Below are positions 8,729 through 11,543 of a stretch of 64,000 nucleotides of DNA, in pieces. A program made the position numbers and the translations under genes. The stretch lies in NCBI GenBank assembly GCA_963736855.1, contig CAVTQK010000009.1, positions 352,001 through 416,000 of the forward strand. The letters run 5' to 3'. Each line of letters opens with the position of its first letter. Position 1 is the first letter of the stretch. The notes under the pieces are model-generated. The model made no database searches and was not told the DNA's origin. It saw only the letters and a program-made list of their open reading frames with translations. Source of the DNA: an uncultured delta proteobacterium (GTDB lineage Bacteria; Desulfobacterota; Desulfobacteria; Desulfobacterales; UBA2156).

Positions 8729-9574
8729 ATGATCATCGATTTTCACACGCACCTTTTCCCGGAAGAGATCCGGAACAATCGGGAGCGCTTTTTCGACGGC
8801 GAGCCGGCGTTTCAACTCCTTTATAAATCCCCTTCATCCCGGCTTGCCGGGATGAATGACATCCTGAAGGTCATGGATGAAGACGGAGTCGGTGTCTCCG
8901 TGATATTCGGCTTTCCATGGAAAAACCTTGAGACCGCAAGGCGCCACAACGACTACATCATGGAAGCCGTCTCGAAGCACCCGGATCGGCTGGTCGGATT
9001 GTGCTGCCTGGAAACGATTTCGGATCCGTCCGGGCAGGAAGTGCGGCGTTGTCTGGACGGAGGGCTTTCCGGCGTGGGGGAGATCGCCTTTTACGATTCC
9101 GGTCTTGACGAAAAGGTTTTGGAAAGCCTCAATTCAGCCATGGAGGTCTGTAAAAACCGGGATATGCCCGTGCTGATCCATGTCAACGAACCCGTCGGAC
9201 ATGCGTATGCGGGAAAAACAAGGGTAACGCTTGCCCAGATCGAGACGCTTGTCCGGCGATACCCTCAAAACAGGATTGTGCTGGCTCATTGGGGCGGCGG
9301 AATCTTCTTTTTTCACCTTTTGAAAAAAGAAATCAAGGAAGCGCTAAAAAACGTTTTTTTCGACACCGCTGCCTCCCCTTTCCTATACGATCCCAAAATC
9401 TATCGGGTGGCATCCGACATCATCGGGCCTGAAAAAATACTTTTCGGAAGCGATTTTCCCCTCATCCGGCCCAAAAGGGGATTGCAGGAAATGGAAAAGG
9501 CGGGATTGAACCCGGAAGAAATCGTCCGGATTCAAGGGCAAAATGCGGCCGGGCTTTTGAAATTAAACCTTTGA
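8729..9574 (+). CDS. Amidohydrolase family protein
   Basis: IIDFHTH, LAHWGGG, ILFGSDFP; AGGAGG SD. Confidence 0.88.
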   Translation: MIIDFHTHLFPEEIRNNRERFFDGEPAFQLLYKSPSSRLAGMNDILKVMDEDGVGVSVIFGFPWKNLETARRHNDYIMEAVSKHPDRLVGLCCLETISDPSGQEVRRCLDGGLSGVGEIAFYDSGLDEKVLESLNSAMEVCKNRDMPVLIHVNEPVGHAYAGKTRVTLAQIETLVRRYPQNRIVLAHWGGGIFFFHLLKKEIKEALKNVFFDTAASPFLYDPKIYRVASDIIGPEKILFGSDFPLIRPKRGLQEMEKAGLNPEEIVRIQGQNAAGLLKLNL

Positions 9575-10249
9575 ATCCAGTTTCTTGATCAGGTCTTGGA
9601 TTTTTTCCCGATGCTCCCAGGGGACCATGAGACGGCGCAAGGGACGATTGGGTATGACAACGCGCCGGACAGCCGATGGCTGAGTGAGATCTGCCCGATA
9701 AACGCCGTCGGATTCTGCAAGTTCCAGAAATACATCCGATAAGTTGCCCGAAAATCCTTTGACATCCAGGTGTTCGACATACTGCATCAAGACATGGGCA
9801 ACGGTAAGGACAAAGGGATTCATGGTGGCATGCCCCAAATCCCGGCATGAGATTTCCGAGACCATGGATCGACACATGAAGGGCCGAAAGGCATAGATCG
9901 TGCATTTCCCTTCCTCCAGCAAGGGGCATATGTCCCAGTCCGGATTTCCCTCTTCGTCGGGCACGTCCTCTCCCGAATCAAGAAGATCGGCCATCTGGTT
10001 GAGGGTGAGAGTGGGTTGAAACCGGGGTAGGTTTTTCAGGCCGATGATGCGGTCAAAAAGGCCCCCGGTTGCTGAAGCATCCAGGTTCTGAAGGATCCAC
10101 TCCCCTTCCAGAGCGGTCATCACCACATTTCGGGTGCAGCATGCCGCGCATCCTTTTTCACAGGCCAAGGGATGCGGCTGTATGAACCCGTCGAAGAGCC
10201 GATAAATTCGTTGCAGTTGCATCAGTCGCTCATTCATGTACAGGTTCAA
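9563..10249 (-). CDS. YkgJ-family cysteine-cluster (Fe-S/Zn) protein
   Basis: CEKGCAACC...CPLL...CTIYAFRPFMCR. The start may be 10237 (AGGAG SD upstream). Confidence 0.8.
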   Translation of the reverse strand: MNLYMNERLMQLQRIYRLFDGFIQPHPLACEKGCAACCTRNVVMTALEGEWILQNLDASATGGLFDRIIGLKNLPRFQPTLTLNQMADLLDSGEDVPDEEGNPDWDICPLLEEGKCTIYAFRPFMCRSMVSEISCRDLGHATMNPFVLTVAHVLMQYVEHLDVKGFSGNLSDVFLELAESDGVYRADLTQPSAVRRVVIPNRPLRRLMVPWEHREKIQDLIKKLDSKV

Positions 10250-10300
10250 GCTCCTTTCAGGGTTTTTTGCCGGATCGTCAAAGGGGAAAAAGGGTCAGAA

Positions 10301-10338
10301 AGTTTCCAAATGGAAACTGATAATTTCCAGACGGAAAC
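10301..10338. promoter_or_regulatory. Tandem palindromic sites, candidate enhancer (UAS) for a sigma54 activator
   Basis: AGTTTCCA-AA-TGGAAACT (10301-10318, perfect) and ATTTCCAG-ACGGAAAC (10323-10338), ~135-170 bp upstream of the -24/-12 motif. Confidence 0.5.
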
Positions 10339-10469
10339 ATGGCGGTGTGTTTTGGGATGCTCTTTGGCTTTTCTTTGGGAGTTTCCGATAAATCCAAATC
10401 ATAATTAAGATTTTGATATCATTGACTATTATAATCAATAAAATATTTTGGAGTCTATTTTAATGTTTC

Positions 10470-10485
10470 AGGCATGGTATTTGCT
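10470..10485 (+). promoter_or_regulatory. Sigma54 (-24/-12) promoter
   Basis: AGGCATGGTATTTGCT: GG and GC at the required spacing, preceded by an AT-rich spacer. Confidence 0.65.
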
Positions 10486-10495
10486 TGCTATTAAT

Positions 10496-10564
10496 GGTAC
10501 GTGCATTTCTTCATCTTCATTTTCTCCTTAACGGCTGGCCATGGTGACCGGCCGTTTTTATTTT
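10496..10564 (+). ncRNA. Putative sigma54-dependent small RNA (~65-70 nt) with pyrimidine-rich anti-SD segment
   Basis: Lies between the sigma54 motif and a terminator hairpin; contains CUUCAUUUUCUCCUUA; no credible + strand gene follows. Confidence 0.45.
10530..10564 (+). terminator. Intrinsic terminator
   Basis: AACGGCTGGCCA-TGG-TGACCGGCCGTT hairpin followed by TTTATTTT on the + strand. Confidence 0.6.
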
Positions 10565-11250
10565 GCACCCCCGATTTCTTCCTTGACCAAGGTGCTGTAG
10601 AAGGAATCCGGAAAATCGGCAAGGATTTGCTTGAATTTTTCGGACCTGGCTTCGGTGTTTCCCGCTTTTCCGGACAGATTTGCCAGAATAAAGAGGGCTT
10701 CGTCTTTCAGTAAAGGTACATCCCCCGAGGCGACCTGTTCGAAGTACTTGGCCGCCTGATCGGGTTGTTGCTTTTTCAAATAGGCATGGCCGATGCTGCT
10801 CAAAATGACGTTTCTCAACAAAGGGTTGTCCTTGTAATCATCGAGGGCATCCTGATAAGCAGTGATTGCGCTGTCCTGATCGCCACCTTGAAAACAGAGG
10901 TTTGCATACAAAACCCGTCCCATTTTCCCGGAGCCGGTGCCCGGATATTCTTTGAAAAATGCCGCCAGCATCTCCTTTGTCTGGCCCATCTTCTCACCGG
11001 AGACAGTGCCTTCATCGACCTGACGATAGGTCGCCATGATCTTTCCAAAAGCCTCGATCGCTTTTTTTTCTCTTATATTCCGGTAGTACATCCACCCGGA
11101 ACCGGCCGCTGCAACGAAAATCAAGGCTGCCGCGCCCCAAAAAATCCGATCCTTGTTTTGAAGAATCCATTGAAGCATCCGGGCCGAAAATGTGAGGAAT
11201 TCGTCCGGTTCTTTCAAAAGCTCTTTTCGGGTGATTTTCTTCTTTAACAT
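10558..11250 (-). CDS. Membrane-anchored tetratricopeptide repeat protein (YfgM-like)
   Basis: KELLKEPDEF, a single TM helix and TPR-like helices; start set at ATG 11250 with GGAGG SD. Confidence 0.8.
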   Translation of the reverse strand: MLKKKITRKELLKEPDEFLTFSARMLQWILQNKDRIFWGAAALIFVAAAGSGWMYYRNIREKKAIEAFGKIMATYRQVDEGTVSGEKMGQTKEMLAAFFKEYPGTGSGKMGRVLYANLCFQGGDQDSAITAYQDALDDYKDNPLLRNVILSSIGHAYLKKQQPDQAAKYFEQVASGDVPLLKDEALFILANLSGKAGNTEARSEKFKQILADFPDSFYSTLVKEEIGGAK

Positions 11251-11543
11251 ATATCCTCCGGTCAACCGGTATATTCTGTGATTTTGAAGCTTCCCGCTAA
11301 AAAACGTGTGGCTTCCTTCCACCCCGTCTTTGAAGGCGGAGCTTGAGCGAAGCATGCCGATCAAACGGCTTTACAAACCTTCCGGCATCCTGTATATTTT
11401 TTATTATGCCTCATAGGATATTCTGAAGGTTGGGGCAATAGAAAAGCGACTCTCCTGGGCGTTTCTGCCTTTCCATTCGTACCCGCAGCCCCGATATTTG
11501 GGTGTGACTTGCTTTTTTCCAGGAGGTGATTATCGTGACAGGT

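Follow-up and report, generated by a model that had tools for sequence, protein, structure and literature searches.

A family of predicted sigma-54-type small RNAs in Desulfobacterales with complementarity to a porin translation start

Anatomy of the RNA Locus

The window, a stretch of 64,000 nucleotides from the genome of an uncultured delta proteobacterium of the order Desulfobacterales (here G000; contig CAVTQK010000009.1), contains a predicted small RNA gene flanked by a CxxCxxCC gene and a convergent TPR_21 gene, the latter presumably YfgM-like (Table 1). Re-extraction of the sequence located all the parts that the original prediction had described, i.e. a −24/−12 promoter, an unstructured body, a pyrimidine tract and a terminator with its U tract, each in its place on the + strand. 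The GG-N10-GC core of the promoter is kept in 96 of 98 aligned homologues, a count that is partly circular in that the box belongs to the model used for the alignment. An RpoN box is present in G000, and the strict motif GGCAYG-N3-WTTGCW occurs six times in this 3.9-Mb genome. The AT-rich stretch preceding the sigma-54 box (10422–10457) carries sigma-70-like boxes on both strands, of which that on the minus strand may serve the CxxCxxCC gene.

Table 1. Predicted features of the locus, numbered from the first letter of the window, and the candidate target on contig C20 of G000
Feature	Position	Strand	Description
Enhancer site 1	10302–10317		Palindrome GTTTCC-N4-GGAAAC; predicted site of sigma-54 response regulator
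Enhancer site 2	10323–10338		21 bp after site 1
IHF-like site	10406–10418		Matches the IHF consensus YAANNNNTTGATW; outside the RNA model
sigma-54 −24/−12 promoter	10470–10485	+	AGGCATGGTATTTGCT; GG (10471–72)-N10-GC (10483–84)
Predicted small RNA, ~65 nt	10496–10562	+	Ends placed provisionally by promoter spacing and U tract
5′ segment	10499–10508	+	ACGUGCAUUU; complement of AAAUGCACGU, which lies shortly before the porin SD
Anti-SD/anti-AUG/anti-codon 1–5 tract, 28 nt	10506–10533	+	TTTCTTCATCTTCATTTTCTCCTTAACG; predicted to pair with the porin start, one G-U
Intrinsic-terminator-like hairpin and U-rich tail	10530–10564	+	Stem 10530–10556, tail to 10564
Convergent TPR_21 gene	10558–11250	−	PF09976; stop codon within the U tract of the RNA
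Porin start complementary to the RNA tract	G000:C20, first ATG 113601	−	Gene outside the window

Folded as a single sequence, the RNA has an unpaired 5′ body starting from about 10496 and an unremarkable folding z-score of −0.84, and its hairpin was not called by a simple terminator scan; the case for the RNA therefore rests on comparison. Independent short-read contigs from three runs span the element with at most two substitutions inside it. The comparative evidence presented below indicates that the promoter-tract-terminator arrangement is more than a chance one.

Conservation of the RNA Family and of Its Predicted Switch

A plain, model-free DNA search of 41 genomes recovered the succession of promoter, tract and hairpin in all five same-genus genomes, in two of six other genomes of the same family, and in one genome from another family. 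A covariance model built from those nine sequences (R1) matches 96 of 151 Desulfobacterales genomes. With the model R2, built from 98 matches, the search of relatives proposed with the original prediction recovered the promoter-tract-terminator unit in 120 of the 151 (92 of 113 genomes of good quality). In a sample of the phylum, 28 of 151 genomes match the covariance model at E values up to 0.05, many of them weakly. An exact pattern scan returned at least 120 stretches; among 80 matches listed, 75 bear the names of Desulfobacterales taxa or deltaproteobacteria, including Desulfosarcina cetonica, Desulfatitalea alkaliphila and Desulfamplus magnetovallimortis. Three pattern matches outside the group (L134, L136 and L177) gave no match to the covariance model. 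One record titled Cyanobacteriota (L180) carries a full model match of 52.6 bits, for which mis-binning is the likely cause.

In an alignment of 95 distinct hairpin sequences fitted to the structure, 97.8% of cells are paired and all 11 base pairs have changes on both sides; slid controls fall to 5–52% paired. A MAFFT alignment of the nine initial sequences has both-side changes at only two of the 11 hairpin pairs. An Rfam scan assigned no family at the gathering score, either to positions 9500–11500 of the window or to homologous loci: the best match for the former against Rfam 15 is RF00519 (20.4 versus 41 gathering bits, E 0.3), and the best overlap with the element at eight named homologous loci is RF02877 (28.7 versus 52 gathering bits, E 0.22). 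A literature search, with subscription journals and bioRxiv supplements outside its range, did not turn up this RNA, which may therefore be listed without a name in a transcriptome supplement. Comparison across genomes thus points to a real, uncatalogued and order-wide family of predicted RNAs.

Additional copies occur in some genomes. G000 carries a second one on the minus strand of contig C21 (619614–619716; L130), with the order-wide, ancestral type of 5′ segment; its predicted pairing with the porin leader is worse (−26.6), neither enhancer type lies upstream of it, and it abuts what appears by eye to be a transposase remnant. Tandem or closely spaced duplicates are found at L026 (G155) and in G060 and G109, and G100 has up to four matches.

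Upstream of the promoter, one of two enhancer types is present at 55 of 58 loci. The class A enhancer, to which that of the window belongs, comprises two copies of GTTTCC-N4-GGAAAC at a spacing of 21–22 bp (12 of 58 homologues), and the class B enhancer comprises GTTCA-N6-TGAAC motifs that are mostly 75–80 bp apart (43 of 58). Four relaxed class A tandem pairs exist in G000, of which only that in the window has a sigma-54 box nearby. An IHF-like site with at most one mismatch accompanies 38 of 58 homologues, compared with a mean of 9.9 and a maximum of 22 in 200 rounds of shuffling.

In 25 of the 49 loci with enough flanking sequence, the gene immediately upstream of the RNA encodes a sigma-54 response regulator. 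At one position of the recognition helix of this regulator the residue is lysine in all eight class A loci, and glutamine or tryptophan in all 17 class B loci, counts that include kin and are not independent. The orthologue in G000 (67% identity; the next paralogue has 44%) is encoded on contig C20 and has lysine at this position, as the class A enhancer of the window predicts. The promoter, described in the original prediction as an orphan, is thus one only locally, as its likely activator is encoded on another contig of G000 and, in about half of the relatives with sufficient flank, directly upstream. Outside the order, a model match (E up to 0.005) lies beside 11 of the 26 best loci for regulator orthologues. 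In G000, genes similar to mlaE, mlaF and mlaD are immediately followed by those for the histidine kinase and the regulator (C20:31356–25171), and this block adjoins type IV pilus assembly genes. The sensor domain of the kinase gave no named ligand; its atlas matches are hypothetical proteins, with one cluster 20% sCache_3_2.

The features of small RNAs driven by sigma-54 and an enhancer-binding protein, i.e. a −24/−12 promoter, an enhancer, an IHF-like site and a linked activator gene, are thus all present at the level of sequence. Together with the family-wide conservation and the covarying terminator, they support the original proposal of a trans-acting small RNA on the + strand that is signal-controlled and directed against SD and AUG.

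Complementarity to a Porin Start and Covariation with Its Leader

The weaker matches of the initial DNA search proved to be reverse complements at gene starts. In G000 the best non-self ungapped complement of the RNA is a gene start on contig C20 (score 63.5, the next being 41), where 28 contiguous pairs, one of them G-U, span the SD sequence, both AUGs and the first codons. In a genome-wide ranking performed for G000, the duplex with this start has a computed energy of −45.7 kcal/mol; among 7,963 other SD-bearing starts (mean −17.0, SD 4.2 kcal/mol) the best, which belongs to a predicted lipoprotein, reaches −37.3 kcal/mol. The porin start was scored alone in the same window as the 7,963-start scan, which had missed it because a frameshift shortens its frame below the cut-off. 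The original prediction had named bfr and hsp20 as possible targets, which we reject since their start regions rank 1,739 and 4,366 among the 7,963 and the porin start is far better; the porin itself could not have been seen at that stage because its gene lies beyond the window.

The protein from a genome of the same genus folds in a predicted model as a β-barrel with a signal helix (pLDDT 93.5), for which the top Foldseek matches are DcaP, OmpT, Omp32 and PorB. Several of the porin homologues carry PF13609; two porins scanned against Pfam gave no family, and an NCBIfam scan gave only a weak DESULF_POR1 match below the cut-off. The predicted fold thus suggests that the target is an outer-membrane porin. 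A search with one query found the porin in 55 of 151 genomes, so that the targets examined represent a minority of the RNA-bearing genomes. In three genomes (L099 in G140, L100 in G012 and L101 in G086) the RNA gene lies about 2–7 kb from a porin match on the same contig. Outside the order, the best complements in G282, G315, G245, G299 and G331 are signal-peptide proteins ending in phenylalanine, some of which have weak porin or β-barrel matches, and in two of three families tested there the best complements lie mostly on such proteins; this speaks for the porin reading. Against it, target searches gave nothing convincing for family f120 (four genomes), and the top non-self match in G347 does not resemble a porin.

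As assembled, the porin gene of G000 has two single-base frameshifts (L021:9215–9217 and 9480–9482). These are probably assembly errors, because contigs of related strains lack the extra bases: one base is absent at or beside the 5′ break in four of four runs, and at the second break in three of four. A sigma-70-type promoter lies 159 nt upstream in the G000 leader. Far upstream of the porin start, 28 of 46 leaders carry another strong SD-like sequence, A(A/G)GG(A/G)GGTG (for example at about L021:9695–9683, minus strand), which could be a stabilizing ribosome site. The leaders of G000, G001 and G002 contain an upstream frame of 13–17 codons with a stop overlapping the porin SD; such an overlap occurs in five of 21 leaders, and the sequence of the frame is poorly kept.

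Side-by-side comparison of the RNA and the porin leader in 39 genomes revealed that the 5′ segment of the RNA matches a motif upstream of the porin SD, often present in two or three copies. The common type combines the segment ACCUAAUAAUUU with the leader motif AAAUUAUUAGGU, the window RNA has ACGUGCAUUU with AAAUGCACGU, family f12 has ACCUGAUAA with UUAUCAGGU, and G124 and G140 have CCUCAA with UUGAGG. RNA and leader were also altered together in the genus of G000. A test for covariation employed 36 of the 39 pairs, leaving out G000 and G002, which were lost to a wrongly placed anchor, and G088, which has a 4-nt segment; G051, with no located start, was left out of both this test and the separate comparison mentioned below. 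For the 5′ segment, the genome's own leader beats the median leader from other families in 33 of the 36 pairs and fails to do so in three; for the ribosome binding site the corresponding number is 28 of 36.

When a single genome was drawn from each of 25 families, no permutation reached the observed sum (0 of 5,000 in each of 20 draws), with z-scores of −4.8 to −6.3 for the 5′ segment and −6.0 to −7.6 for the ribosome binding site. The reverse-complement control gave z-scores of −0.06 to 1.0. Composition controls, employing reversed sequence and coding regions, gave −1.0 to −2.7, with −1.4 to −2.7 for the reversed leader and −1.2 to −2.6 for the coding region; as these are weaker than the −4.8 to −6.3 of the segment, base composition explains part, but not most, of the signal. 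Among 19 variant 5′ segments, 13 match their own leader exactly, and at most three of 33–35 leaders from other families do as well; in a separate comparison, the segments of G000 and G002 are each equalled by one of 36. The other six variants (G027, G041, G066, G110, G119 and G137) do not single out the tested porin copy; with seven porin matches in G137, the comparison there may have used the wrong paralogue. These observations suggest that the 5′ segment is a lineage-variable second pairing site.

Proposed Mechanism, Alternatives and Related Systems

We propose, with a probability of nearly 0.8, that the RNA is a two-component-controlled repressor of a porin, similar to MicF and VrrA in its action but independent of Hfq. 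A membrane histidine kinase would phosphorylate the NtrC-family regulator (G000:C20:27962–25171, downstream of the mlaEFD-like genes), which would then bind the tandem enhancer (10302–10338), as suggested by genomic linkage and by the covariation of helix and site. Bending of the DNA by IHF at its predicted site would accompany opening of the promoter, and the resulting RNA would have an unpaired 5′ body and end in a terminator. The 28-nt tract, whose complementarity to and covariation with the leader are shown, would mask the porin mRNA from its SD through the AUG to the first codons, while the 5′ segment may also engage the leader motifs 5–70 nt upstream. Ribosome loading would be blocked and porin levels would fall, with no need for Hfq or ProQ. 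The signal may be an envelope cue, which is a guess based on the gene neighbors of the regulator.

Hfq (PF17209) was found in none of the 151 Desulfobacterales genomes, with five of 14 controls positive, and ProQ was not found in G000. A Jag/KhpB gene is present, and its product could assist the RNA. A more far-reaching reading, which we advance tentatively and regard as possible rather than probable, is that sulfate reducers have, in this module, an envelope-stress circuit of their own. Such a circuit, an ancient counterpart of sigma-E/MicA built on sigma-54, would be chaperone-free because the array of landing sites upstream of the SD captures the 5′ segment and hands it to the ribosome binding site. 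If so, co-evolution across the phylum would run in three layers, coupling the activator helix to the enhancer, the 5′ segment of the RNA to its landing sites, and the tract to the start region.

The RNA might alternatively be real but act as a broad anti-RBS regulator of many mRNAs for exported proteins that begin with an SD and MKK, the porin being simply the best target. The tract, which is of low complexity, mirrors a generic signal-peptide start and would fit many exported-protein starts, the start ranked second in G000 is that of the predicted lipoprotein, and several different barrel proteins match outside the order. However, in G000 the porin start lies 8 kcal/mol clear of the next start, and the upstream motif co-varies specifically with the porin leader, so we consider a broad regulator unlikely.

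It is much less probable that the shared motif is a site for a DNA- or RNA-binding protein at both loci, which would place them under a common regulator with no RNA-RNA contact. The two or three repeats of the leader motif are of a kind often seen for protein sites, but the match is antisense only, the reverse-complement control shows nothing, and the motif lies inside the predicted transcript beside the anti-SD tract with no same-sense copy seen.

We give a similarly slender chance to a functional product of the minus strand, either a short peptide or, by read-through from the convergent TPR gene, a decoy for the porin ribosome binding site. The minus strand does have a perfect SD and ATG, and the frame MKMKKCTYH, put forward earlier as an alternative to the RNA, exists in the window. 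Nevertheless, among 59 homologues the peptides range from 4 to 63 residues in all three frames relative to the promoter, and in five no ATG was found at this place; for these reasons a small protein or type I toxin gene is rejected. The TPR_21 gene is convergent downstream of the RNA in 26 of 47 homologous loci, where read-through transcripts could sequester the RNA in cis, acting as an antisense sink, but the other 21 lack a convergent TPR gene, and the promoter, the enhancer and the U tract are all indicative of the + strand. That the circuit in G000 is a relic, with a conserved RNA and a pseudogene target as the two porin frameshifts might imply, is scarcely credible given that contigs from closely related strains are free of the extra bases, that same-genus porins are open frames, and that in this genus changes in the RNA go along with changes in the leader.

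Desulfobacterales are major sulfate reducers in marine and freshwater sediments, and literature searches for this order found no small RNA with an assigned target. The preferred reading, i.e. repression of the porin by a two-component-controlled RNA, describes a complete and testable circuit derived from sequence alone, comprising kinase, regulator, enhancer, promoter, RNA and porin target, with the RNA family present in about 80% of the sampled genomes of the order and, as the exact pattern scan indicates, in cultured species, for example Desulfosarcina cetonica and Desulfatitalea alkaliphila. It predicts that a small RNA controls a porin in a lineage in which no Hfq was found; the compensatory RNA-mRNA changes and regulator-enhancer switches provide a natural series for studies of network evolution.

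The trans-encoded enterobacterial RNAs MicF, MicA and RybB pair with the 5′ region of porin mRNAs and block translation; the principle of porin repression by small RNAs, exemplified by these and by VrrA, is already known. The present family is not homologous to them by Rfam, as no match to MicF, MicA, RybB or VrrA was obtained at E values up to 10 for the window and up to 1 for the eight homologous loci. The suhB/MmgR (RF00519) and NmsR (RF02877) RNAs have, as here, a CU-rich anti-SD stretch before the terminator, a likeness of composition and not of membership. With Pxr of Myxococcus xanthus, which is under sigma-54 control, this RNA shares only the sigma-54 logic, and the Qrr RNAs of Vibrio require Hfq.

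Like MicF, MicA, RybB and VrrA, the RNA described here is complementary to the translation start of a porin mRNA, on which it is predicted to act. VrrA of Vibrio cholerae is likewise encoded in trans and prevents translation of a porin mRNA by pairing in its 5′ region, with Hfq not strictly needed (PMC2628432). Unlike VrrA, which is 140 nt long and sigma-E-dependent, the present RNA is ~65 nt and has a sigma-54 promoter with an enhancer; it differs from all four in belonging to an order in which Hfq was not found, in a predicted pairing of ~28 nt, and in a second, co-varying leader site. The Qrr RNAs are likewise switched on by a sigma-54 enhancer-binding regulator (PMC10162802), but their sequence, structure and targets (quorum regulators) are unlike those here, as are the sequence, structure and developmental target of Pxr (PMC5568312).

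A matching layout is described in the same phylum: Desulfovibrio vulgaris has the modules DVU0679/Dv_sRNA2 and DVU0653/ncRNA, each with a sigma-54 response regulator gene, its sites, a sigma-54 promoter and a small RNA whose function is stated there to be unknown (PMC3333781, PMC4641369). The binding sites of these modules (CGTGCGTATTCGCACG; TtTCtGtGATtaCGGAat) and, by eye, their DNA-binding domains differ from those described here, and by these features the modules are not orthologous. DVU3305, the D. vulgaris protein with the most similar DNA-binding domain by eye, is reported to have another site (TGTTGC-N5-GCAACA) and protein-coding stress targets (PMC3333781, PMC4641369). On the differences in their sites, DVU0653, DVU0679 and DVU3305 were rejected as orthologues. 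Relative to these systems, what appears to be new here is an order-wide family of predicted RNAs with a specific candidate porin target and a putative cognate activator.
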